The notes beneath the pieces are model-generated. The model did no database searches. It was not told the DNA's origin and saw only the letters and a program-made list of their open reading frames with translations. From an uncultured Verrucomicrobiae bacterium (GTDB lineage: Bacteria > Verrucomicrobiota > Verrucomicrobiia > Limisphaerales > UBA11358), in contig CAWAYP010000008.1 in the NCBI GenBank assembly GCA_963786375.1, positions 659 to 64,658 on the forward strand: 64,000 bases of DNA. Reading direction: 5' to 3'. Shown here piece by piece: positions 2,535 through 59,218 of the stretch; within the stretch, counting starts at the first letter, position 1, and each line of letters opens with the position of its first letter. The position numbers and the translations under genes are program-made.

Positions 2535-3772
2535 TTACCAAACTTCCACCGGCCCTTTGGGCACGGGAATTTGTTCGCGTTGGTTGACGGCGGGTTCGTC
2601 GCGCATGAAGGACGCGACCATCGGCGGCGGACGGAAGCGCGGCTGCAATTCGCCGTTCTCGTCGAGAAATTGCCGCCGCCAGCGGATGTAGTTTTCCAGA
2701 ACGTCGTGAAATTCCGCGCGCGTGGAAATCTGCACGACGCGTTTGTTGAATTCGTGGCACGGGCCGAACCGCTTGGCATACCACGGCGCGACTTTGCGGA
2801 ACATCCGGCAGCCGAGTTCCTCGCCAAAAACTTCAATCATCAAATCCAGATGCCGGCACATCACGCGCACGCGCTCGGCAAAGGAAGGGTCAGAAGGGAT
2901 ATTCCTGTCTGTGCCGGAAGTTCGTTCAACGCGGTAGCGTCTTGGAGTGCGGCAGTCCTCTGGCACTTTTCGTGTGCGAACCGTCCATTTAAAATCGGCA
3001 GAGGACTGCCGCACTCCAAAATCTGACGGTTGTTCCGCCATTCAGATATTGCAGCGTGCGCTGGAAAATCCACGGATTATAAAATGCGCCGCGCCCGATG
3101 CTCACGCCGGCGCAGCCGGTTTCATCGAGCATTTTCTTCGCGGCCTGCGGCGTGATGATGTCGCCGTTGCCGATGACGGGAATGTGCTTCACGGCTTCGA
3201 CGACTTTGCGGATGCCGGCGAGGTTCACCGTGCCGCCGAAACCCTGTTCGCGCGTCCGGCCATGGACAAAAATGGCCGCGACGCCGGCATCTTCGAGCGC
3301 GCGCGCCAAATCCGGCGCGGTGAGATTTTCGTCGTCCCAGCCGAGCCGCATTTTGGCCGTCACGGGAATTTTCACGGCGTTGACCATGCCGCGGACGAGC
3401 GCGGCGGTTTTGTCGAGTTCGGTCATCATGGCCGAGCCGCCGCCGACGTTGCAGACTTTGCGGACGGGACAGCCCATGTTGATGTCAATGGAATCGACGC
3501 CGCAGTGCTTCGAGCATGAGCGCGGCGTCGCGCATTTCCTCCGGGCACGGAGCCGAAGAGTTGGACGGCCAGCGGCGAATCGGCCGGCCGGGTTTCAATG
3601 AGCTTGAACGCCTTGGGATTTTTTTCCAGCAGCGAGCGGGCGTTGACCAGATCGGTGGTGCAAAGGCCGACGCCGCCGATTTCGCGCACGACCAGGCGGA
3701 AGGGCAGGTTGGTGTAACCCGCCAGCGGCGAGAGAAACAGATTGGATTCGATGTCAGCGAACCGAGGCGCAT
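2535..3772 (-). pseudogene. dusB: tRNA-dihydrouridine synthase, frameshifted duplicate of 13274..14509
   Basis: ORF pieces 3485-3772, 3426-3689, 2989-3477 and 2535-3041 together tile the DusB peptide (MGCPVRKVCNVGGGSAMMTEL..., ...PVPKGPVEVW) in different frames. Confidence 0.85.
2942..3022. repeat. Family C long hairpin repeat (GGAGTGCGGCAGTCCTCTG...CAGAGGACTGCCGCACTCC) inside the left dusB copy
   Basis: Self-complementary arms are read directly. It is homologous to 14025-14105, 53930-54008 and 43801-43858. Confidence 0.8.
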
Positions 3773-3870
3773 GGTTTGATTATAGCAGATTGATTGACAT
3801 TGGCGAGAAAAGCGAATTCGCGCATTGCGGAAGCGAGAACGGCATGTTAGCTTGGCATGCCAAAGTAAAA

Positions 3871-5930
<2,060 letters not shown>

Positions 5931-30410: not shown

Positions 30411-31325
30411 CTATCCGTAAATGTCGCTCAACGCGCCGCGCAATTCGGGAAATTGAAACTTGAAGCCGAGTTTGAGGAAACGCCTGGGCGCGCAACGCCG
30501 GCCGGTCAACGCCAGCGACGGGTCGGTTCGCATCAACCACGAGCCGAGCCGCACCGCCCAAACCGGCGCGGGCGGACACCGGGGACGGTGCAACGCCCGC
30601 CGCAGTTCAGCCATGAACTCCGCGTTCGTGACCGGGTTTGGCCCCGTGGCATTGAACACGCCAATCACCTCGCCCCGTTCGATGGAGTCCATCATCATTT
30701 GAGTCATGTCCGCCAGATGAATCCAGCTGACATACTGCCCCCCGCTGCCCGCTGCTCCGCCCAGAAACCATCTGGTCAATTTTCCCAGCACGGAAAGCGC
30801 GCCGCCATCGCGCGCCAGCACAAGGCCGGTTCGCAGCAACACGCGACGGGTGTTGGCCAACGGCACGGTTTTGAACGCAGTTTCCCAAAGCCGGCAGGTT
30901 TCCACCGCTTCACCCTGGCCGGACGGTGTGCCTTCCTCGCACCATCGGTCGTCCAAATCGCCATAGAACGCGAGCGCCCCCGCCTGCACCCACACGCGCG
31001 GCGGATCTGCCACGCTGTGAACCGCCGCGGCCAAAGCGTTCACGGAATTAATGCGTGATTCATTGATCTCGCGGACATTCTCCGGCGTGTGCCGGCAATT
31101 CACACTGCGCCCGGCAAGATTGACCATCGCGTGGGCGCCTTCCACAGATTGCACCCAATCGCCCAGCGTCCTCCCATTCCACGCCACTTCCTTGACGCCA
31201 TCGTCGCGCCCGCGCGGCAAACGCGTCAGCACCACCACCTCGTAATTTTTCAGGAGCAAATTCCGGGCGAGCGCCCGGCCGAGGAAACCGCTGCCGCCTG
31301 CGAGCACGACCCGTTTTTTATTCAT
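30411..31325 (-). CDS. NAD-dependent epimerase-family protein (TIGR01777/YfcH-like)
   Basis: Rossmann motif VVLAGGSGFLGRAL and a DUF1731-like C-terminus. Confidence 0.65.
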   Translation of the reverse strand: MNKKRVVLAGGSGFLGRALARNLLLKNYEVVVLTRLPRGRDDGVKEVAWNGRTLGDWVQSVEGAHAMVNLAGRSVNCRHTPENVREINESRINSVNALAAAVHSVADPPRVWVQAGALAFYGDLDDRWCEEGTPSGQGEAVETCRLWETAFKTVPLANTRRVLLRTGLVLARDGGALSVLGKLTRWFLGGAAGSGGQYVSWIHLADMTQMMMDSIERGEVIGVFNATGPNPVTNAEFMAELRRALHRPRCPPAPVWAVRLGSWLMRTDPSLALTGRRCAPRRFLKLGFKFQFPELRGALSDIYG

Positions 31326-31776
31326 GGCCGGTCCTTTCCAGTTTCAATTCCGGCGCGGTTTGGTCCGTCAACGGATTGACGCCAAACTGCGTCCGCTCCA
31401 GCTCTTTCAGCCATTTTCGGGCCAATGTACCCACGGTCTCCAGGTTCAAATGTTCATGCACGCGCGGATATTTTTCGAAGTTTGCACAGGCGAGCTTGAA
31501 CAGCGCGGCGGCGGGCGGCGGACGGTTTTTTTGCAGGTGTACGAACGCGCCGGCCAGTTGAATCAGCCCCTTGTAAAACGCGCCGTTCGCGCCATGCTTG
31601 TCCTTGAGCCATAAATTTTCCAGCACCTCATGCGCTTCGTAAAATTGCCGGCGATTGAAACAATCAAAATAACCAAGATAATGGGGGTCCAGTTTCCGCC
31701 CGTGATGATGGCCCACCATTTCGGCAATGCGTTTGCTCTTGCGGCTCACGCAGGCAGGGTAATGTCCAAAATCCAA
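31318..31776 (-). CDS. DUF309-domain protein
   Basis: FNRRQFYEAHEVLENLWL is the motif typical of DUF309. The ORF overlaps the downstream gene by 8 nt. Confidence 0.6.
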   Translation of the reverse strand: MDFGHYPACVSRKSKRIAEMVGHHHGRKLDPHYLGYFDCFNRRQFYEAHEVLENLWLKDKHGANGAFYKGLIQLAGAFVHLQKNRPPPAAALFKLACANFEKYPRVHEHLNLETVGTLARKWLKELERTQFGVNPLTDQTAPELKLERTGHE

Positions 31777-31808: not shown

Positions 31809-31930
31809 GGTAGGGACGGCGCGCCGCGCCGTCCGCGCCGCGTTCAGCGGCGCAACTCCCTGCGTGAACCTTGGACGTTCATTCCGCCCGCTCCACGCGG
31901 GCGGGGACATCGCAGCGCGATGTCCCTACC
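31809..31930. repeat. Family A composite hairpin module (GTAGGGAC...GTCCCTAC), solitary copy
   Basis: ggtagggacggcgcgccgcgccgtcc / gcgccgcgttcagcggcgc / linker / ccgcccgctccacgcgggcgg / ggacatcgcagcgcgatgtccctacc. The architecture matches modules at 55.9-56.3 kb and 59.3-59.6 kb. Confidence 0.8.
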
Positions 31931-46938: not shown

Positions 46939-49842
46939 GTGGACCTCTCCTATCATGGGGTCAACCTCATGAGCCCATGGTCGAAGCAGATAACCGGATC
47001 AGGCAAAGTGGATGCCGTGCATTTGAGCGCGTCTGATTCGCCGTCGGTTGAAACGCCGGGAAACACCCGTTCCCGCCCGCCCGAGGCCGGCAGCCGGCCG
47101 GCCGGTTGGCCAAATCGCTGGGCGGTTTTTGGCGTCTGTATTTTTCTGGTGGTGATGGTCTGGGTGATTTTCGGCCAAACGCAGGGATTCGGCTTTGTCA
47201 ATTACGACGACAACGTGTATGTCTATCAGAATTCAATAGTTCAGGCCGGGCTGACCTGGACAGGCCTCAAGTGGGCGTTCACCACGATGGACATGGCCAA
47301 CTGGAATCCACTCACCTGGTTGTCCTTCATGCTCGATTGCCAGTTATTCGGCCCGAACGCCGGTGGATGTCATCTGGTTAATGTCCTCCTCCACGCAGCC
47401 AACGCCGCTCTGTTATTGGTGTTGCTCTGGCGGCTGACCAGCCGCCTCTGGCCCAGTGCGTTCGTCGCCGCTCTGTTTGCCTGTCATCCGCAGCACGTGG
47501 AATCGGTGGCCTGGGTGGCCGAACGCAAGGACGTGCTTTCGGCCTTCTTCGGATTGCTGGCCTTGCTGGCCTACGTGGGTTATGTCCGGAAACGGTCGGA
47601 GGCCGAGAGTCGGGGGCCGGGCGCGGGCGTTGCGATGCCGGCCCGCGATCCCCGCCTTGCCGCCCCCGACTATCCTTTGGCGCTTTTCTTCTATGCCTGC
47701 GGACTCATGGCCAAACCGATGCTGGTGACGTTGCCCTTCGTGTTGCTGTTGCTGGATTACTGGCCGTTGCAGCGGGTGCCCAATTTTGAATTGCGATGGT
47801 CCCATTGGGCCCGGCTGATTCGCGAGAAATGGCCGTTCTTTGTACTGACCATTGCTTCCTGTATGGTGACCTCTATCGCCCAGCAACGCAGCATGGCATT
47901 TGTCGCTTCGAGCAATTATTCACTGCCTTCGCTGCCGGCCCGCGTTGGCAACGCGGCGATGGCGTATGTCAAGTACCTGTTCCAGAGCGTCTATCCGGTG
48001 AATTTGGCGGTGCTTTATCCGCTGCCCAAGGAGATGGCCTGGGGGCAAGCAGCCGGGGCCGGGCTGGTCTTGATGGTGATGACCGGGCTGATTTGGCGGG
48101 CACGCCGGCGATGCCCGTATTTGTTGACGGGTTGGTTGTGGTATTTGGGGATGCTGGTGCCGGTGATTGGCTTGGTGCCGGTGGGGGCAGGCCTTCAAGC
48201 GATGGCCGATCGCTACACGTACCTGCCGCAGATTGGGTGGTATCTGCTGGTGACGTGGGGGGCGATGGAACTGTGCGCGGGCTGGCGGCATCGCCGCGTG
48301 GTGCTGGGCGGCATCGCCGCAGTCATTCTGGTGGCTTTGATTGGCTGCGCGCGCACCCAGGTTTCGTATTGGCGGAACAGCGAAACGCTATGGACTCACA
48401 CGCTCGCCTGCACCTCTGACAATGCGACAGCCCTCAACAATCTCAGTGTCGTACTGTTCGAAAAAGGCGAAGTGGACCAAGCGATGGCCGATTGCCAAAA
48501 GGCGCTGCAAATCAATCCCAACGACCCGAACGCCTGGAACAACCTCGGCAACGTACTGCTCCAGGAGGGCAGGCTGGATGAGGCGATTCCATATTTCCAA
48601 AAGGCGCTGCAAATCAATCCCAACTACGCGGAGGCCCACAACAACCTCGGCAACGTACTGCTCCAAAAAGGCAGAGCGGACGAGGCGATTGCCCAATTCC
48701 AAAAGGCCCTGCGCTTCAATCTCGATGTCGCGAAAACCTACTGCAACCTCGGCAACGCCCTGCTCCAAAAGGGCGAAGTGGATGAAGCGATTGCCCAATA
48801 CCAAACGGCCCTGCAAATCAACCCCAACTCCGCGGAGGCCCACAACAACTTCGGCCGGGTGCTGTTCCACGAAGGCGAATTGGACCAGGCGATTGCCCAA
48901 TACCAAACAGCCCTGCAAATCAAGCCTGACTTCGCGGAAGCCCACAACAACCTGGGTATTGTGCTGTTTCAGAATGGCGAAGCAGACGAGGCGATTGCGC
49001 ACTTTCAAGAGGCGTTGCAAATCAAACCTGATTTCGCGGGGGCCCGCAACAACCTCGGCAACGCCCTGCTCCAGGAAAACAAAGTGGACGAGGCGATTGC
49101 CCAATTCCAAAAGGCCCTGCAAATCAATCCCGACAACGCTGACGCCCAGAACAACCTCGGCAACGCCCAGCTCCAAAAGGGCCAGGTGGACGAGGCGATT
49201 GCCCATTACCAGAAGGCCCTGCAAATCAATCCCAACAATCCGAATATCTGCAACAACCTCGGCAACGCCCAACTCCAAAAAGGCAAGTTCGATGAGGCGA
49301 TTGTGCATTTCCAAAAGGCGTTGCAAATCAAACCGGACTTCGTGGAGGCCCACGTCAACCTCGGCAAGGCCCTGCTCGAAAAAGGGCGCCTGCCGGAGGC
49401 CGTCCAGCATTTTCAGCGTGCCCTGGCCATGCGCCCGGACGACCCTGGCATTGAGATGGACCTGGGCTACGCCTGGTCGCGCCAGGGACAATTCGAACCG
49501 GCCATTGAGCATTATCAAGCCGCCCTCAAGCTGCAGCCAAACAATGCAGCCTTTCTGAACAACCTCGCATGGCTTTTGGCTACGTGTCCGGAGGCGCGTT
49601 CTCGCAACGGCCAGCAGGCCGTCCAACTGGCCGAACGGGCTTGTCAGTTGACCGATTTCAAGCAGCCGCAACTGATTGGCACTTTGGCCGCTGCTTATGC
49701 CGAAGCGGGACGCTTTGACGATGCGGTGGCAGCCTCGGAAAAGGCCCACGATTTGGCGCTGGCGCTTGGACAACAAACGCTGGCGCTCAAGAACCAAAAG
49801 TTGCTGCAACTTTTTAAGGCCCACCAACCCTGCCGGGAATAA
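46939..49842 (+). CDS. Polytopic membrane domain (TMTC/PMT-like glycosyltransferase-type) fused to a long TPR array
   Basis: About 430 aa of multiple TM helices, followed by more than 12 TPR units (AEAHNNLGNVLLQKG..DEAIAQFQKALQINP). The start codon is uncertain. Confidence 0.65.
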   Translation: MDLSYHGVNLMSPWSKQITGSGKVDAVHLSASDSPSVETPGNTRSRPPEAGSRPAGWPNRWAVFGVCIFLVVMVWVIFGQTQGFGFVNYDDNVYVYQNSIVQAGLTWTGLKWAFTTMDMANWNPLTWLSFMLDCQLFGPNAGGCHLVNVLLHAANAALLLVLLWRLTSRLWPSAFVAALFACHPQHVESVAWVAERKDVLSAFFGLLALLAYVGYVRKRSEAESRGPGAGVAMPARDPRLAAPDYPLALFFYACGLMAKPMLVTLPFVLLLLDYWPLQRVPNFELRWSHWARLIREKWPFFVLTIASCMVTSIAQQRSMAFVASSNYSLPSLPARVGNAAMAYVKYLFQSVYPVNLAVLYPLPKEMAWGQAAGAGLVLMVMTGLIWRARRRCPYLLTGWLWYLGMLVPVIGLVPVGAGLQAMADRYTYLPQIGWYLLVTWGAMELCAGWRHRRVVLGGIAAVILVALIGCARTQVSYWRNSETLWTHTLACTSDNATALNNLSVVLFEKGEVDQAMADCQKALQINPNDPNAWNNLGNVLLQEGRLDEAIPYFQKALQINPNYAEAHNNLGNVLLQKGRADEAIAQFQKALRFNLDVAKTYCNLGNALLQKGEVDEAIAQYQTALQINPNSAEAHNNFGRVLFHEGELDQAIAQYQTALQIKPDFAEAHNNLGIVLFQNGEADEAIAHFQEALQIKPDFAGARNNLGNALLQENKVDEAIAQFQKALQINPDNADAQNNLGNAQLQKGQVDEAIAHYQKALQINPNNPNICNNLGNAQLQKGKFDEAIVHFQKALQIKPDFVEAHVNLGKALLEKGRLPEAVQHFQRALAMRPDDPGIEMDLGYAWSRQGQFEPAIEHYQAALKLQPNNAAFLNNLAWLLATCPEARSRNGQQAVQLAERACQLTDFKQPQLIGTLAAAYAEAGRFDDAVAASEKAHDLALALGQQTLALKNQKLLQLFKAHQPCRE
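48425..49440 (+). repeat. Tandem 102-nt (34-codon) TPR repeats of high mutual similarity
   Basis: About ten consecutive units with recurring ..EAIAxFQKALQI(N/K)P(N/D)xAEAHNNLGNxLLQKGxxD.. Confidence 0.8.
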
Positions 49843-49951
49843 CCGGCGCGCCGGCGGGAGAATCAATCCGGCTGTTCAGCGATTTGCGCCAATGATGGCA
49901 CCAATCGCCGGGCTTGACTTTCAACCTTCAACTTTCAACCCTCAACCCTTA

Positions 49952-50317
49952 ATGACCGCCTTTCAAATCATCTTCACGCCGACGAGCGCCGCCGAACTGG
50001 CGCGGATGCCCAAGGAACTGCAGTTGCAAATCCTCGGCGACTTTCGCGGCCTGCCCCAACAGGTGCGCGGCACGGAACTGGACGAATTCGGCAAGCTGGA
50101 ACGGGGCGGGCGCGTCCTGCACCGCTTTCGCGTCGGCGACTACCGCGTCTATTTTGAACGGCACGAACTGGGCGTGCTCGTGCACCGGATCCTCAACCGG
50201 CACACGCTCAAGGATTTCTACTTCCGGTCCGGCCTCAAGACCGCCGAGGACGAAGCGCTCCAGGAAAATCCCAAGTTTTGGGAACTGATGGAAGCGGCCA
50301 GGACCTCGGCAAAATAA
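49952..50317 (+). CDS. RelE/ParE-like toxin-family protein with a C-terminal extension; no partner antitoxin seen
   Basis: Core LHRFRVGDYRVYFERHELGVLVHRILNR resembles the RelE/ParE beta-sheet core. The internal ATG at 49952 is preferred. Confidence 0.4.
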   Translation: MTAFQIIFTPTSAAELARMPKELQLQILGDFRGLPQQVRGTELDEFGKLERGGRVLHRFRVGDYRVYFERHELGVLVHRILNRHTLKDFYFRSGLKTAEDEALQENPKFWELMEAARTSAK

Positions 50318-50389: not shown

Positions 50390-50516
50390 GGTGGGGCAAG
50401 CGTCCTCGCAAGCCGCAGCACTATTACCCCGGCTCGTCAGCAGCCTCGCCCCACCAAAAGCATGGCCCACCAGGGTGAAGTCCTACCACCGGTGGGGCGA
50501 GCGTCCTCGCGAGCCG
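50390..50516. repeat. Family B repeat cluster (GGTGGGGCGAGCGTCCTCGCGAGCCG), three units in +,-,+ orientation
   Basis: Units at 50390-50416, 50431-50455 (inverted) and 50491-50516, immediately upstream of the first RAYT gene. Confidence 0.8.
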
Positions 50517-50573
50517 GGGTAAAGGGGAAATTCAAACTTTCAAACGCTTTGTTCAACCAATAATTTCGAAAAC

Positions 50574-51095
50574 GTGAACCGGTATCAAGACAACCAATTT
50601 CCTCAACGCCAAAATCCTTCACCCGGCGTCCATATCCAATTGGGCCAATCCAACATGGTCCTGCTGACGATTACCACCGAAAAGCGCGAACCCTGGCTGG
50701 CCAATGAAGGAGCACATCAGCTTCTTCACCAGACCTGGTCAGAAGCGACTGCCTGGTTGGTCGGCGATTACTTGCTGATGCCGGACCATTTTCACTTGTT
50801 TTGTGCACCGGGAGATTTGCACTTCACCATTGAAACGTGGATTTCCTATTGGAAGCGCGAATTCGCGCTAAAGCAAAAACAGCTCGCGAGGACGCTCGCC
50901 CCACCAAAAAGCGTCGTCCCGCCAGAATGGAAATTTCAGTCACGCGGCTGGCATCATCGGCTGCGTGATGGTGAAAATTATTCGGAGAAGTGGGTTTACG
51001 TGCAGGAAAATCCGATCCGTAAAGGATTGGTTAAACGAATTGAAGACTGGCCATTCAAAGGTCGAGTGTTTGATTTGATTTGGACTGGAAAGTGA
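50574..51095 (+). CDS. REP-associated tyrosine transposase (RAYT, IS200/IS605 Y1 HUH family), copy 1
   Basis: HUH motif LMPDHFHLF and tyrosine motif WVYVQENPIRKGLV...DWPF. GTG start. Confidence 0.75.
   Translation: MNRYQDNQFPQRQNPSPGVHIQLGQSNMVLLTITTEKREPWLANEGAHQLLHQTWSEATAWLVGDYLLMPDHFHLFCAPGDLHFTIETWISYWKREFALKQKQLARTLAPPKSVVPPEWKFQSRGWHHRLRDGENYSEKWVYVQENPIRKGLVKRIEDWPFKGRVFDLIWTGK
50883..50906. repeat. Family B repeat unit inside RAYT copy 1
   Basis: gctcgcgaggacgctcgccccacc, translated as LARTLAPP. Confidence 0.7.
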
Positions 51096-51152
51096 CTTCA
51101 CATGACGGCTAGAGCCTTTCCATAAAACATGTAGCTTTACACATGCGGTGCG

Positions 51153-51566
51153 GTGTGGCAGGGTGTCGTCATGCGCGCCATTCCTCTACCGATCCGCGAA
51201 CGAATCATCCACCTCTATGAACAGGGCAAAGGCACCGGCGAAATTGCGGAGTTCTTTGGTTTCTGTGTTGCCGCCGTGCGGCGGGTTCGGCAGCAGTTCA
51301 AGGCGCGCGGCACGCTGCAACCCCAAACTCATCAATGCGGGCGCAAGACACTGTTGACCGCCCGCCGGAAAGCCCGCCTGCAAAGACTGGTGGCCCAGCA
51401 ACCCGACGCCACTCTGGCTGAACTGGGAACCCGCCTGGATCGCCCCTTTCGGACTTCGACGGTGGACTTATGGCTGCGGCGGCTGGGGTTGACGTATAAA
51501 AAAAACGCTGCACGCCGCCGAACAAAATCGCCCCGACGTGGCCGCAAAACGGGCTGGCTGGCATGA
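51153..51566 (+). CDS. IS630 transposase, N-terminal HTH part (orfA)
   Basis: IRERIIHLYEQGKGTGEIAEFFGFCVAAVRRV helix-turn-helix. It ends shortly after an A8 run at 51497-51504. Confidence 0.75.
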   Translation: MWQGVVMRAIPLPIRERIIHLYEQGKGTGEIAEFFGFCVAAVRRVRQQFKARGTLQPQTHQCGRKTLLTARRKARLQRLVAQQPDATLAELGTRLDRPFRTSTVDLWLRRLGLTYKKNAARRRTKSPRRGRKTGWLA

Positions 51567-52101
51567 GTCGCTGGCCGGAGAATCCCCGGCGCAGATGGTG
51601 TTCGTGGATGAAAGCGGAGCCAACACGCGGATGACCCGCTGGCGTGGCCGCGCGCCAACAGGCCAACGGCTCGTCGCCCGGATTCCGCACGGCCATTATC
51701 AGACCAGCACCCTGATTGCCGGGGTCGGCCTGCGCGGAGCCTGCGCCCCGTGGTTGTTTGACGGGGCCATGGACGGGGAGATGTTTTTGGCGTGGGTGCG
51801 GCAGGGATTGGCGGCCGTCCTACAGTTCGGCGATCTGGTCATCATGGACAATCTGGCCACACACAAGGTGGCCGGGGTGCGTGAGGCCATTGAAGCCGTC
51901 GGCGCCCGGCTGTTGTATCTGCCGCCCTATTCGCCGGACTTCAACCCCATTGAAAACATGTGGAGCAAGATCAAACAGGCGCTGCGCAGCCGCTCCCCGC
52001 GCACCCAGACGGAGTTGCTGATCGCCGCCGCCCTGGCGTTTGATTCCATTTCATCCGCTGACTGCCTCGGTTTCTTTTTGCACGCCCGATACGCTATATG
52101 A
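51538..52101 (+). CDS. IS630 transposase, DDE catalytic part (orfB)
   Basis: Motifs VFVDESG, IMDNLATHK and LPPYSPDFNPIENMWSKIK. The frame is continuous with orfA if one A of the A8 run is skipped. Confidence 0.8.
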   Translation: MAAKRAGWHESLAGESPAQMVFVDESGANTRMTRWRGRAPTGQRLVARIPHGHYQTSTLIAGVGLRGACAPWLFDGAMDGEMFLAWVRQGLAAVLQFGDLVIMDNLATHKVAGVREAIEAVGARLLYLPPYSPDFNPIENMWSKIKQALRSRSPRTQTELLIAAALAFDSISSADCLGFFLHARYAI

Positions 52102-52125
52102 TTTATGGAAATGCTCTAGCGCTCC

Positions 52126-52150
52126 GGCTCGTCAGTAGCCTCGCCCCACC
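52126..52150. repeat. Family B repeat unit just right of the IS630
   Basis: ggctcgtcagtagcctcgccccacc. Confidence 0.7.
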
Positions 52151-52223: not shown

Positions 52224-52760
52224 TCAAATCGCGAAATCACTGAGCTGGGCCTGGGCCAGTTCCAGGATGGAATTGTAACAGCCCTCCACGTTTTGCGCCA
52301 CGGTGTCTATGTAGTTTTCCCGTTCCTGCGGGCGGGGCACTTCGAATGGAAAATCCAGCAAATCCGGCACGCTCCCCGTCTTGGCCCGCTGGTAAAGCCC
52401 CTTGGGATCCCGCGTTATGCAGACATCCAATGGCGCATGAATGTAAATCCAGGCCAGGCGCTTGCCCAAAACTTTGGCCACCACGTCCCGTTGATTATGT
52501 TCAGGCGCCATGGTGGCAACGACCACGTTCATTCCCTGATCGAGCGCCAGCTTGGCCACCTCGGCAATCCGCCGGTGGTTTTCCACCCTGGCTTCCGTGG
52601 AGAAACGCAGATCGGAGCAAAGGCCCGACCGCATGTCGTCCCCATCCAGAAAAAACACCGGGATGTCCCGGTCGGCAAACCCATCGCGCAGCTTCCGCGC
52701 CAGGGTGGTCTTGCCCGCGCCACTGCGTCCGAAGAGCCAAAATACCCGGGTGAGTCTCAT
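52224..52760 (-). CDS. cysC: Adenylyl-sulfate (APS) kinase
   Basis: P-loop GRSGAGKTTLA, FLDGDDMR and the RRIAEVAKL region are typical of CysC. Confidence 0.8.
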   Translation of the reverse strand: MRLTRVFWLFGRSGAGKTTLARKLRDGFADRDIPVFFLDGDDMRSGLCSDLRFSTEARVENHRRIAEVAKLALDQGMNVVVATMAPEHNQRDVVAKVLGKRLAWIYIHAPLDVCITRDPKGLYQRAKTGSVPDLLDFPFEVPRPQERENYIDTVAQNVEGCYNSILELAQAQLSDFAI

Positions 52761-52927
52761 ACGCGAGACTGCAATGGCCAGGCCGCTTCGTCAAGAAAGA
52801 AGGCTGGAGCGGGCGATGATTCTTTCGCTGGGCGGGCAACCCGCGAGGCCACTGCGCATGTTTGACAGCACTCCCCCCGACTCCCCTGCAAAGGGCCTCC
52901 TAATCCAAAATGGCAGGCGAATTCAGA

Positions 52928-53590: not shown

Positions 53591-53718
53591 AGCTTCCGCG
53601 CCAGGGTGGTCTTGCCTGCGCCACTGCGTCCGAAGAGCCAAAATACCCGGGTGAGTTTCATACGCGAGGCTGGAAAAATTGCGCCACAGCGTCAAGGAAG
53701 AAGAAGGCGATTACGACT
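53591..53718 (-). pseudogene. Duplicated 5' end plus upstream region of cysC (about 25 codons), orphaned by the TA cassette
   Basis: agcttccgcgccagggtggtcttgcc[t/c]gcgccactgcgtccgaagagccaaaatacccgggtgagt.tcatacgcgag is shared with 52690-52770. Weaker similarity continues to about 52815 and 53718. Confidence 0.75.
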
Positions 53719-55846: not shown

Positions 55847-56398
55847 GTAAGGACACGTCGCCGACGTGTCCGCGCCCCAACCGGGCGCAACCTTCCGGCG
55901 GCTTTTCCGCCGGAGACATCGCAGCGCGATGTCCCTACCAAATCACATTCATCCGACAATGGCAGAATGGCGCGCCGCGCCGTCCGAGCGCCGCGTCCAG
56001 CGGCGCAATCGCGGATTCAAAAACCTTGCACCCTCGTTCCGCCCGCTGGACGCGGGCGGGGACGGGTAGGGACACGTCGCCGACGTGTCCGCGCCCCAAC
56101 CGGGCGCAACTTTCCGGCGGCTTTACCGCCGGGAACATCGCAGCGCGATGTCCCTACCAAATCACATTCATCCGACAATGGCAGGATGGTTCGCCGCGCC
56201 GTCCGAGCGCCGCGTCCAGCGGCACAATCGCGGATTCAAAAACCTTGCACCCTCGTTCCGCCCGCTGGACGCGGGCGGGGACGGCTGGGGCCAGCCGTCC
56301 CTACCGGGTAGGGACACGTCGCCGACGTGTCCGCGCCCGAACCGGGCGCAATTCCGGCGGCGTTACCGCCGGGGACATCGCAGCGCGATGTCCCTACC
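55847..56398. repeat. Family A repeat array 1 (three four-hairpin units alternating with two long modules)
   Basis: Recurring gtagggacacgtcgccgacgtgtcc gcgccccaaccgggcgc ..tccggcggctttaccgccgga gacatcgcagcgcgatgtccctacc. It starts at the stop codon of paralog 1. Confidence 0.85.
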
Positions 56399-56399
56399 A

Positions 56400-56450: not shown

Positions 56451-56527
56451 GCTGCGGCTCGTCAGTAGCCTCGCCCCACCACCATATGGTCACATCAGGT
56501 GGGGCGAGCGTACTCGCGAGCCGCAGC
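56451..56527. repeat. Family B inverted pair forming a long hairpin
   Basis: gctgcggctcgtcagtagcctcgccccacc, a 17-nt spacer, then ggtggggcgagcgtactcgcgagccgcagc. Confidence 0.8.
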
Positions 56528-56598: not shown

Positions 56599-58194
56599 AT
56601 GAAGTTGAAGCGCCCACAGTTGGTCCACCACAGTTCCGTCGTTAAATTGTTCCAGGCCGCCGAGCAGGCGCTGCAACGCAAGGATTTCCAGCAAAATTTC
56701 GAGCTGCTCGAACGCGCCCGCAGCCTGGACCCGGCCAATCCCGCCATTCTGCTGCAATTGGGCCGGAGCCACGGGTTGCGCTACAATTATACCGCCGCCG
56801 AGGAATGCTTTGAAAAAGCCATCCAGCTTGCCCAAAACAAAACCCAAATCATGGCAATGGCCGGCGCGCAAAGCTGCGATTTTTTCAATCCGGAGTTGGC
56901 GGAGCGTTATTTCCGGCGGGCCGTGGAACAAAAGGACGCCACCGTTGGAATGCTGGTCCAATTGGCGGAGATTTATGAAATGTTCTTCCACCGCATGGCC
57001 GAGGCCAGTCAAATGATTGATCGGGCGCTGCAAATGGATCCCACTTTTCAGAGGGCCTTGCTGACGCGCGCCCGGCTGGAGCGCCAGGCCGGCCATTTGG
57101 AAGAAGCCGAGAAATTGCTGCGCTCCATTCTCGCAACGACTGATCAGGAGACGCGCATCCGGGCCTATTATCAGTTGGGCGCCGCCCTGGATCGTCAGGG
57201 GCGATATGATGAAGCGATGGCGGCTTTCATCGAGGCCAAGGCGCCTTTTCAGGCGCAGAGCGGGGCATTCTTTCTTCAACGTCAAATTGCCGGCGCGCAT
57301 TTGCGGGAGATACTCACCAGTATTTCCGCCGAAACTTTCCAGCGCTGGTTTGATTTTGGCCGGGAACTACAACCACCCCGGCGGCTGGCCATGCTTTGCG
57401 GCCATCCCCGCTCCGGCACCACCTTGCTGGAGCAGGTGCTGGATTCGCATCCGGACATCATTTCCGCCGAGGAAACGACTGTTTTCTATGAGTCTGTGTA
57501 TCTGCCTTTGGCGCGCACGCAACCGCCGCCAGCACCTCGCCCAGGCCTGCCCCCACAATTCCAAATGTCCGATCAAGTAGAACTTTCGGTGCTGGAAGCC
57601 GCCCCGAAGGATTTGTTGCAGCAATTGCGGGAGAATTATTTCCAAACCATGGAGCGTTGCCTGGGAAAACCCATTGACAACCGGCTGTTAGTTGACAAAA
57701 ACCCGGCGCTCACGCTGCTGCTCCTCGGTTTCCAGCGCGTCTTCCCGGAAGTCAAACTCATCGTCGCACTGCGCGACCCGCGAGACGTGGTCTTGAGTTG
57801 TTTCATGCAGAATTTTGCGGTTCTTGCCCCAAGACATACCGCCTTCTTCAACTTGAAGGACACAGTCGAGCAATATGTCGAGGAAATGAACATCTGGCGG
57901 ACGCTGGCGCCCATGATTCCGGGCCGGTATCTCGAAGTCCGGTACGAGGACATGGTGGAGGATTTGGAATCCGTTGCCCGCAGGACGCTGGATTATTTGG
58001 GCGTTTCCTGGGACGTCAAGGTGGTGCATTTTTACGAACGGGCGCGGCAGAGACGGGTGCGCACGCCCGGTTACGCGGACGTAGGCAGGCCGGTCTTCAA
58101 AACCGCGCGGGGCCGCTGGCGGAATTATCAGAAATATCTGGAGCCGTATCTGTACCGGCTGGAGCCGTTTGTAAAGGCGTTTGGATATGAGTAG
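56599..58194 (+). CDS. TPR-domain sulfotransferase, paralog 2
   Basis: Same architecture and motifs as paralog 1 (CGHPRSGTTLLEQ, RDPRDVVLSCF, ..LEPFVKAFGYE*). Confidence 0.75.
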   Translation: MKLKRPQLVHHSSVVKLFQAAEQALQRKDFQQNFELLERARSLDPANPAILLQLGRSHGLRYNYTAAEECFEKAIQLAQNKTQIMAMAGAQSCDFFNPELAERYFRRAVEQKDATVGMLVQLAEIYEMFFHRMAEASQMIDRALQMDPTFQRALLTRARLERQAGHLEEAEKLLRSILATTDQETRIRAYYQLGAALDRQGRYDEAMAAFIEAKAPFQAQSGAFFLQRQIAGAHLREILTSISAETFQRWFDFGRELQPPRRLAMLCGHPRSGTTLLEQVLDSHPDIISAEETTVFYESVYLPLARTQPPPAPRPGLPPQFQMSDQVELSVLEAAPKDLLQQLRENYFQTMERCLGKPIDNRLLVDKNPALTLLLLGFQRVFPEVKLIVALRDPRDVVLSCFMQNFAVLAPRHTAFFNLKDTVEQYVEEMNIWRTLAPMIPGRYLEVRYEDMVEDLESVARRTLDYLGVSWDVKVVHFYERARQRRVRTPGYADVGRPVFKTARGRWRNYQKYLEPYLYRLEPFVKAFGYE

Positions 58195-58530
58195 GTAGGG
58201 ACACGTCGCCGACGTGTCCGCGCCCCAACCGGGCGCTACGTTCCGGCGGCTTTACCGCCGGAGACATCGCAGCGCGATGTCCCTACCAAATCACATTCAT
58301 CCGACTATGGTAGGGATGGCGTGCCGCGCCGTCCGAGCGCCGCGTCCAGCGGCGCAATCGCGGATTCAAAAACCTTGCACCCTCGTTCCGCCCGCTGGAC
58401 GCGGGCGGGGACGGCTGGGGCCAGCCGTCCCTACCGGGTAGGGACACGTCGCCGACGTGTCCGCGCCCCAACCGGGCGCAACTTTCCGGCGGCTTTACCG
58501 CCGGAGACATCGCAGCGCGATGTCCCTACC
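58195..58530. repeat. Family A repeat array 2
   Basis: Same units as array 1. It spans from the stop codon of paralog 2 to the stop codon of RAYT copy 2. Confidence 0.85.
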
Positions 58531-59218
58531 ATTCAAACTGAGGGCGTTGGCCGTCAGCAAAATAAACGAACGGCCAGTCTTCGGGGCGTGGGGCCAGTTC
58601 TTTCCGCACGGGATTTTGCAGGATGTAATCTGCCTTTTCACGGCGACTTTCCTCATGCCTCAACCGATGTTCGAAAAAATCACGTTGCCATTGGATGCCC
58701 AATTGCCGGGCTGTCCACCGTTTCCAAGAACTCACGACCTCCTGCAACGTGCGTTCCGCCCGCTGAACGCGCGCGGGGACGCCTCGGCGAGACATCCCTA
58801 CCGGGTAGGGACACGTCGCCGACGTGTCTGCGCCCCCGGCGGGCGCAGTTCCGGCAGCTTTACCGCCGGAGATCTCCCGGCCTGGCGTTCCTACCGGATT
58901 CGTTGGTAGGGACATCTCGCCGAGATGTCCGCCCTCCTCCCGGACGCCTGAGCCAGGCGTCCCTACCATGAGATTTGCGGGTGGAAAGGCAATCAAGGCA
59001 TGAACATGGTCGGGCATGAGGAGAAATAAATGGGCAAACCAGATGAATTGTTCGTTGCGGAAACGGACGCTGTCCAGCAATGGCCCGGCAACGTCGGGCC
59101 TGGCAAGATGATTGATTTCCCGGGGCTGGCAATTGACGGTGACGAAGCAAATTTCCAGTTGAGGATCAACCCACAACGGAATTTCGTGCGGCAACATCTT
59201 CCTGCGGGGAACAAACAC
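58526..59218 (-). CDS. REP-associated tyrosine transposase (RAYT), copy 2, carrying an in-frame family A repeat insert
   Basis: N-terminal LPHEIPLW...ICFVTVN, HUH motif LMPDHVHALI and tyrosine motif ADYILQNPVRKELA..DWPF. About 72 codons (58752-58968) are repeat-derived. Confidence 0.75.
   Translation of the reverse strand: MFVPRRKMLPHEIPLWVDPQLEICFVTVNCQPREINHLARPDVAGPLLDSVRFRNEQFIWFAHLFLLMPDHVHALIAFPPANLMVGTPGSGVREEGGHLGEMSLPTNPVGTPGREISGGKAAGTAPAGGADTSATCPYPVGMSRRGVPARVQRAERTLQEVVSSWKRWTARQLGIQWQRDFFEHRLRHEESRREKADYILQNPVRKELAPRPEDWPFVYFADGQRPQFEW
58752..58968. repeat. Family A repeat block inside RAYT copy 2
   Basis: Contains gggtagggacacgtcgccgacgtgtc..., ggtagggacatctcgccgagatgtcc and ggacgcctgagccaggcgtccctacc. 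Confidence 0.8.

Follow-up and report, generated by a model that had tools for sequence, protein, structure and literature searches.

The 64,000-nt stretch of contig CAWAYP010000008.1 analysed here (the window), from an uncultured Verrucomicrobiae bacterium, includes at 50390-52150 a gene for a protein of the REP-associated tyrosine transposase (RAYT, or TnpA-REP) kind and several copies of a 26-nt repetitive extragenic palindromic (REP) sequence, designated family B. Copies of the repeat lie on both sides of the gene, RAYT1 (50574-51095, plus strand), and one lies in frame inside it. The region is most probably a REPtron, i.e. a vertically inherited RAYT gene bracketed by inverted copies of the REP family that its product would mobilise.

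Family B was searched for allowing up to 3 mismatches, with 100 dinucleotide-preserving shuffles of the 64-kb window as the null. Seven copies were found, as compared with none expected, and five of them fall inside the 1.76-kb region. Two subtypes, B1 (GGTGGGGCGAGCGTCCTCGCGAGCCG) and B2 (GGTGGGGCGAGGCTNCTGACGAGCCG), have identical ends but differ in the 9-nt centre, being built as GGTGGGGCGAG-CGTCCTCGC-GAGCCG and GGTGGGGCGAG-GCTNCTGAC-GAGCCG, respectively. Upstream of RAYT1 are a B1(+) unit with two mismatches (50390-50415), a B2(-) unit (50430-50455) and an exact B1(+) unit (50491-50516). The first two, 14 nt apart, form a '+ then -' doublet, which among the REPIN-type arrangements of the family is the most common. 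The third, 58 nt upstream of the RAYT1 start, is the conserved 5' flanking unit, found at the same position in the orthologous loci L122-L126. The internal unit is a B1(-) copy with one mismatch (50880-50905), and the 3' flanking unit is a B2(-) copy (52125-52150). The remaining two copies, B2(-) at 56455-56480 and B1(+) at 56498-56523, make up a dispersed doublet. A first-pass annotation of the same DNA had described a RAYT accompanied by its own repeat family, with three units upstream, one inside and one downstream beyond an IS630 insertion; this layout was recovered in full, all coordinates agreeing to within 1-3 nt.

Each unit starts with GGTGG, followed in the minimum-energy fold of B1, and of the sister unit B3 described below, by a GGC-GA-GCG/loop/CGC-GA-GCC hairpin. 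Family B has the GT[AG]G foot with adjoining hairpin that characterises REP sequences, its foot being GTGG, which is an accepted variant (PMC6006769). Opposed B1/B2 pairs, such as that at 50390-50455, are predicted to fold into long imperfect hairpins with free energies (dG) of -42.5 and -33.6 kcal/mol (z -6.3 and -7.6), the second pair of values being that of the doublet at 56455-56523.

RAYT1 is predicted to be a 173-aa HUH/Y1 nuclease. It matches the NCBIfam model REP_Tyr_transpos (NF047646; E 2.7e-19, 69.5 bits), and a profile built from its orthologues recovers E. coli TnpA-REP (PDB 4ER8; E 8.8e-6). Both sequence features of RAYTs, the HuH motif and a Tyr with N or Q four residues on and then P (Y-x-x-x-N-P), are present. 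The former is PDHFH at residues 70-74 (H72 at 50787-50789) and the latter YVQENP, in which the catalytic-type Tyr142 (50997-50999) aligns with YIYINP of 4ER8. None of 34 orthologues differs at H72, Y142 or P147, and H74 and N146 (the latter >=90%) are almost as constant. The gene is bracketed as in a REPtron, with B1(+) upstream and B2(-) downstream.

The association of gene and repeat was assessed in 80 Verrucomicrobia metagenome loci encoding relatives of RAYT1. A family B unit lies within 200 nt of the gene in all 64 orthologues of at least 66% identity, and units are found on both sides in 52 of the 64. Usually B1(+) precedes the gene and B1(-) or B2(-) follows it. The 23 long loci have 77 units no more than 300 nt from the gene (25 kb in total), as compared with 14 in the other 142 kb. 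The enrichment near this type of RAYT on which the first-pass annotation had staked its reading is thus ~30-fold (binomial P = 3e-49).

No B1 or B2 units were detected at 10 homologues of 65% identity or less. Five homologues examined in this range (L188, L190, L192, L195 and L200, at ~3700-4800) are flanked by perfect inverted copies of GGTGGGGCGAGACTCCGTCGAGCC(C). This sister unit, B3 (GGTGGGGCGAGACTCCGTCGAGCC), differs from B1 by compensatory changes on both sides of two inner stem pairs, C-G/G-C being replaced by A-T/C-G, and keeps the foot, the outer GGC/GCC stem and the G-A/A-G internal loop. Judged by this series of sequences, repeat and enzyme have diverged together (B1/B2 as against B3).

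A scan for family B with one genome per species returned at least 119 stretches (L003-L121), nearly all in metagenome-assembled genomes (MAGs) of Verrucomicrobia subdivision 3/Limisphaerales and none from the source assembly. Among the matches listed there are 207 units in 119 stretches and 77 adjacent pairs, all of them '+ then -', with median gaps of 10-20 nt; a RAYT match accompanies three of the 119 (one complete, two partial). Such a doublet pattern with rare RAYT matches is the expected look of a dispersed REPIN family with a rare RAYT gene. The family departs from REPs as usually defined in that it is not confined to extragenic DNA: 32 of the 108 evaluable listed clusters (~30%) have at least 80 open codons to either side in the same frame, the whole open stretch spanning 207 to 1,242 codons. 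In-frame survival in coding DNA is ordinary for this family, and the RAYT gene is simply the spot of highest local repeat density.

Translated in frame, the internal unit of RAYT1 gives (Q)LARTLAPP, as the first-pass annotation had pointed out. It occupies residues 103-111, between H74 and Y142, and is identical to the flanking unit at 25 of 26 nt. It is located between the WKREFALK helix and the WKFQSRGWHH strand; placement of this site in a loop is based on the profile alignment with 4ER8 and the published description of the variable regions. In 36 of the 64 complete orthologues the site is empty and reads ...AAACGG|ACGGAATGG (by codon ...AAA CGG|ACG GAA TGG). In the others a B1(-) unit occupies the same place in the same frame, giving AAA CGG CTC GCG GGG ACG CTC GCC CCA CC. 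Accordingly, the segment from WKREF to WKFQ counts 8 residues at an empty site, 15 to 41 at a filled site in an intact gene, and 21 in the window. The first-pass comparison with a second copy, in which this segment is much shorter, is thus right, and, with about half of the orthologues showing a clean empty site, the internal unit is not a conserved native segment.

The inserts range from a minimum of +21 nt to more than +90 nt, and all those that leave the gene intact are multiples of three. As the loci were gathered by tblastn rather than from gene calls, the whole-codon lengths are not merely a gene-caller filter, although badly broken genes would score lower in such a search. Further units directly follow the internal one in several loci, B2(+) in L131 and L134 and B1(+) in L138, L139, L144, L157 and L199, and L187 carries a (+) unit where the intact (-) unit would be. 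The exact insertion junction and any target duplication could not be defined, filled and empty sites having diverged.

Some orthologues are pseudogenes: L163 carries a stop codon at the catalytic Tyr, L184 is frameshifted, and both L191 and L193 are truncated. In L199 (Ga0335085_10001192, 4250-4430) the RAYT frame ends at the internal B1(-)/B1(+) units, which are followed by B2(-) and then dnaK; the gene has lost its 3' half through a deletion whose end-points lie in repeats. Among the pseudogenised relatives only L199 involves a repeat.

Insert-bearing genes differ from window RAYT1 by 0.4-2.2 substitutions per synonymous site (dS), with ratios of nonsynonymous to synonymous change (dN/dS) of 0.05-0.16; for close orthologues of RAYT1 dN/dS is 0.08-0.16. 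This purifying selection and the intact catalytic motifs indicate that the gene is functional with the insert. From the same comparisons the internal unit is old and common to many orthologues, and not the result of a recent event in the source genome; the site has been variable over a long time and in some loci holds two or more units.

In a neighbour-joining tree from which the variable segment was excluded, insert-bearing genes fall into several groups. Parsimony on this tree requires 8 state changes (6-14 in 200 bootstraps), as compared with 15-27 when the states are shuffled. At synonymous sites window RAYT1 is nearer to the insert-free L143 (dS 0.86) than to the insert-bearing L130, L133 and L141 (dS ~2). 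This pattern suggests that the insert was gained repeatedly at one site or lost precisely; the tree, being based on 152 residues, is a weak one, its change counts are raised by the bootstrapping itself, and no decision between a single origin and recurrent insertion follows from it.

Conservation by codon position was compared between the internal unit and 66 flanking codons in 26 non-redundant insert-bearing loci; L178 and L127, with decayed or interrupted inserts, were left out by the matching threshold, which introduces a small bias. The majority base at third codon positions has a frequency of 94.7% within the unit, as compared with 64.9% in the flanking codons, while at first and second positions the frequencies in unit and flanks are similar. 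Variation in the unit is concentrated at positions 10-12, where it is nonsynonymous (G, R or E) and corresponds to the hairpin loop and its closing pair. Furthermore, a rare CGTAC centre in the internal unit of L152, L165, L171 and L179 is also found in a flanking unit in all four loci, as compared with none of the 22 other insert-bearing loci (by simple arithmetic, a chance of ~1 in 15,000). The constancy at synonymous sites and the variants common with the flanks imply that the internal copy either has remained a live copy within the repeat population or is itself selected. Judged by these patterns, the internal unit seems to evolve in concert with the neighbouring repeats, the cause of which could be conversion, re-insertion or selection on the DNA.

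Concerted evolution with the neighbours is a more likely reason for this constancy than a function of the unit itself. Selection of the unit as a working cis-element, serving as a self-repression or cleavage site in the gene or its transcript, or as a protected master copy that ensures co-inheritance, is nevertheless the alternative that survives best, albeit an unlikely one. It would account for third codon positions far more conserved than in the neighbouring codons, for variation in the loop and closing pair and not at wobble positions, and for rare variants common to internal and flanking units. Persistence of the unit over orthologues with dS up to ~2 and the rearrangement of L199, which ends at the internal unit, also speak for it. 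However, about half of the orthologues lack the unit and are equally conserved; the ~30% of dispersed listed clusters that lie in unrelated long frames show that a unit can survive in frame without any special function; the same conservation would result from gene conversion or from repeated re-insertion out of units close by; and a single unit has no significant fold. It may tentatively be suggested, with a probability that we consider low, that the in-gene unit is maintained at the DNA or RNA level as a site at which the enzyme acts on its own gene, giving feedback, self-limiting rearrangement as in L199, or a founder copy that keeps enzyme and repeat matched.

A further possibility, which we regard as improbable, is that RAYT1 is a decaying relic, its internal repeat and the IS630 insertion marking its coming loss and family B being immobile in the source genome. 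The pseudogenised relatives, the displacement of the 3' flanking unit by 1 kb through the IS630 element and the small number of family B copies in the window away from the gene are consistent with decay, but the frame is intact with both the HuH and the Tyr motif present, the dN/dS values against close orthologues are low (0.08-0.16, as given above), and the flanking units are exact or near-exact to the family consensus. Least credible, to the point of being negligible, is that LARTLAPP is a native loop whose likeness to the repeat is coincidental or convergent, or that the repeat family arose from the gene: the segment is indeed found in many orthologues and tolerated by the protein, but its near-identity to the flanking unit has no expected chance occurrence, 36 of 64 orthologues have the clean empty site, extra units in either orientation occur at the same site, and insert-free orthologues (e.g. 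L006 and L146) as well as distant homologues already have family B or its sister unit at their flanks, so that the repeat is older than the insert. Both chance likeness and derivation of the repeat from the gene were rejected on these grounds. An assembly artefact was likewise rejected, as two assemblies, one represented by a 504-kb ENA contig and the other by an NCBI 'Verrucomicrobiia bacterium' MAG, have the identical RAYT1 protein with the same IS630 element, and the architecture recurs in dozens of metagenome contigs.

Several observations weigh against the REPtron reading itself. The NF047646 score of RAYT1 is below the curated cut-off of 80 bits both with the insert (69.5) and without it (66.3), and a 160-aa orthologue reaches only 68.4; RAYT1 thus represents a divergent RAYT-like lineage and not the curated equivalog. 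No Pfam family, Y1_Tnp included, was matched at E <=0.01 by RAYT1 or by the second RAYT of the window. An AlphaFold2 model built from the 34-sequence alignment had a mean predicted local distance difference test (pLDDT) score of 53.6, too poor to confirm that the insert lies in a surface loop. Folded singly, B1, B2 and B3 units reach -2.5 to -5.5 kcal/mol (z -0.9 to +0.5), which is the level of shuffled sequences, so that the structure recognised by the enzyme is not established by folding. Finally, two of the seven family B units of the window, those of the doublet at 56455-56523, are away from RAYT1.

The REPtron reading would imply the following course of events. By analogy with E. coli TnpA-REP and IS200/IS605 TnpA, RAYT1 would act as an HUH/tyrosine nuclease that recognises family B in single-stranded DNA by its GTGG foot on the 5' side and the small imperfect hairpin that comes after it. 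Cutting and rejoining at such sites would spread units and inverted doublets (REPINs) over the genome. One unit may have landed in the RAYT1 gene itself, at a presumed surface loop between helix alphaC and strand beta4, and would have survived there because the reading frame was kept. It would still belong to the repeat population, tracking the flanking variant and acquiring further units beside it, and in one relative, L199, it may have served as an end-point when the 3' half of the gene was deleted. The IS630 element would have inserted later, at CTAG between the stop codon and the 3' flanking unit.

The IS630-family insertion sequence (51112-52116, plus strand) is 1005 bp long and lies between the gene and the 3' unit, as the first-pass annotation had it. 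It has the marks of its family: its open reading frames (ORFs) match DDE_3 (E 1.9e-33) and the C-terminal one also matches transpos_IS630 (128.6 bits); its terminal inverted repeats at 51112-51135 and 52093-52116 agree at 21 of 24 nt (3 mismatches); and the TA of its CTAG target is duplicated at 51110-51111 (left copy) and 52117-52118 (right copy). In both assemblies that have the locus, a run of eight A residues (A8, 51498-51505) divides the transposase between two frames, 51153-51566 and 51538-52101. Translated by eye, the downstream frame KKTLHAAEQNRPDV / KKTLHAAEQNRPDVAAKRAGW requires one A fewer in this run, KKTLHAAEQNRPDV being presumably close to the usual IS630 transposase sequence at that point. 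The extra A could be a homopolymer error, a real frameshift or a site of transcriptional slippage. With the element removed, the B2(-) unit at 52125 begins 22 nt past the RAYT1 stop codon, as compared with 13-14 nt in L123-L125. Having landed between the gene and its 3' flanking repeat, the element left both intact. It is an unrelated later event, incidental to the arrangement of repeat and RAYT gene.

The window contains one copy of each of two RAYT types. The second, RAYT2 (58526-59218, minus strand; 230 aa, with motifs DHVH / WQ / YILQNP), is 7.4 kb from RAYT1 and has only the catalytic motifs in common with it. It scores 72.7 bits on NF047646, and an insert-free orthologue of its type scores 86.8, above the 80-bit cut-off. 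Its repeat, family A (GGTAGGGAC followed by a 9-bp hairpin), has a GTAG foot and folds significantly as a single unit (z -4.6). As also noted at first pass, RAYT2 has been entered by its own family: three family A cores, 58804(+), 58905(+) and 58959(-), lie in frame in its ORF, with arrays on both sides. Most RAYT2 homologues have 157 aa and lack this segment, which is inserted directly after the HuH strand (FPPS|), in another loop than in RAYT1 and again with variable length. All four RAYT2 orthologous loci are flanked by family A, and one has internal units. Three of the four resemble the window in the types of their neighbouring genes, having a TPR-sulfotransferase gene to one side and, in L204, where the opposite neighbour could be identified, a PEP-CTERM gene to the other.

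In L202 and L203 (1-300) a fragment of a second Y1_Tnp gene accompanied by B-like units (GGTGGGGCGAGCGTTCTCG...) lies ~1.4 kb from the RAYT2 orthologue; two Y1 genes with different repeats side by side may reflect a recurrent proximity. Within the window, a 338-bp family A composite (56065-56399) recurs next to RAYT2 at 58194-58531 (95% identical). The family A array at 55931-56398 abuts the family B doublet at 56455-56523, both families occupying one intergenic spot. A lone inverted family A pair is found far from RAYT2, at 31809-31930, just downstream of ORF 31318-31776, and appears to be intergenic. An 82-bp direct repeat (52690-52771 and 53591-53672, 96% identical) consists of the 5' end (P-loop region) of an APS kinase gene on the minus strand and an isolated duplicate 0.9 kb off. 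The ORF just upstream of the family B cluster, 49676-50317, has an over-called 5' end, the gene callers of the two assemblies giving 121 and 141 aa, and no Pfam match was found for it.

These data bear on annotation. RAYT genes of this kind score under curated hidden Markov model cut-offs, vary in length and are often mis-started over upstream repeats. Several database proteins of the RAYT1 type begin in this way, with N-terminal GGASVLASR or RLVSSLAPP. The peptides encoded by family B in all six frames (GGASVLASR, VGRASSRA, WGERPREP, RLARTLAPP, SRGRSPHQ and AREDARPT) are useful markers of repeat-derived segments in Verrucomicrobia proteins. The locus also provides a natural comparison of two RAYT types ~7 kb apart with their own families, the GTGG-footed B and the GTAG-footed A, and a graded orthologue series in which repeat and enzyme diverge together, from B1/B2 to B3. 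A live internal copy would make it testable whether RAYTs prefer nearby DNA in cis.

Of known systems, E. coli TnpA-REP (RAYT, YafM; PDB 4ER8; Messing 2012, PMC3479197) is like RAYT1 in its HUH/Y1 fold, assigned here by profile, and in being flanked by its cognate REPs, and the E. coli REP, like family B, has a GT[AG]G foot tetranucleotide followed by a hairpin. In contrast, RAYT1 has only ~25% sequence similarity to the E. coli protein, and family B is distinguished by the foot GTGG, a short hairpin and a 2x2 G-A/A-G internal loop. The IS630 family shares with the element at 51112-52116 the DDE_3 domain, inverted repeats and TA duplication at CTAG, but the present element is only 1005 bp long and its transposase is split by one extra A.

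The REPIN-RAYT systems of Pseudomonas (Bertels & Rainey 2011, PMC3116915; Bertels, Gallie & Rainey 2017, PMC5581495) likewise show dispersed inverted doublets, a RAYT flanked by its own family, several RAYT/REPIN pairs per genome, and vertical inheritance with conserved synteny, seen here for the RAYT2 orthologues. In those papers the repeats are extragenic and none is reported inside a RAYT gene, whereas ~30% of the clusters listed here lie in ORFs. In-frame intragenic REPs have been described in many genes by Di Nocera, De Gregorio & Rocco (2013), who found GTAG repeats within genes to be most numerous in the verrucomicrobium Opitutus terrae; singles, dimers and clusters encode up to 20-80 residues (PMC3733652). 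The occurrence of family B in coding frames agrees with the exception made there for Verrucomicrobia (PMC3733652). In the text-form supplementary files of that study 'transposase' is absent and 'RAYT' is confined to the RAYT/TIRYT alignment file.

The closest precedent is the work of Quentin, Siguier, Chandler & Fichant (2018, BMC Genomics 19:475; PMC6006769), who described in-frame REPs inside tnpA-REP genes of subclass 2.4 and some of 2.7 and 2.8; as in RAYT1, REPs are both flanking and internal and the reading frame is kept. An arrangement with REPs inside the gene has therefore already been published. Of the first-pass interpretation the structural claims all stand, whereas the insert is not recent and the arrangement is not new. 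RAYT2 fits the 2.7 signature of that classification ([ND]HVH / WQ / YI[LR][NQ]NP), while the RAYT1 motifs (DH[FL]H / W-H / YVQENP) fit no signature exactly. By motif comparison only, RAYT1 is not a member of subclass 2.4 (NH[IFV]H / WQ / YIxNNP, insert at beta3:alphaC), as it has DHFH / GWHH / YVQENP and its insert just before the conserved W.

No report of conservation at synonymous sites of an internal unit, or of variants shared with the flanks, was found in the accessible literature, and neither DNA-level conservation nor co-variation with the flanks is reported in Quentin 2018; the in-gene unit of RAYT1-type genes, with conserved synonymous positions and rare variants common with the flanking units, goes beyond these accounts. 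Quentin 2018 placed the two variable regions of the core at beta3:alphaC and alphaC:beta4 (PMC6006769) and, on the alphaC:beta4 side, where the RAYT1 insert lies, reported only fixed short insertions (subclasses 2.2 and 2.6). The host of RAYT1 belongs to the Verrucomicrobia (Limisphaerales-type MAGs), a phylum absent from the text of that paper. The present locus adds a verrucomicrobial case to the REP transposase genes that carry their own repeat in frame and, in alphaC:beta4, a second site of insertion.

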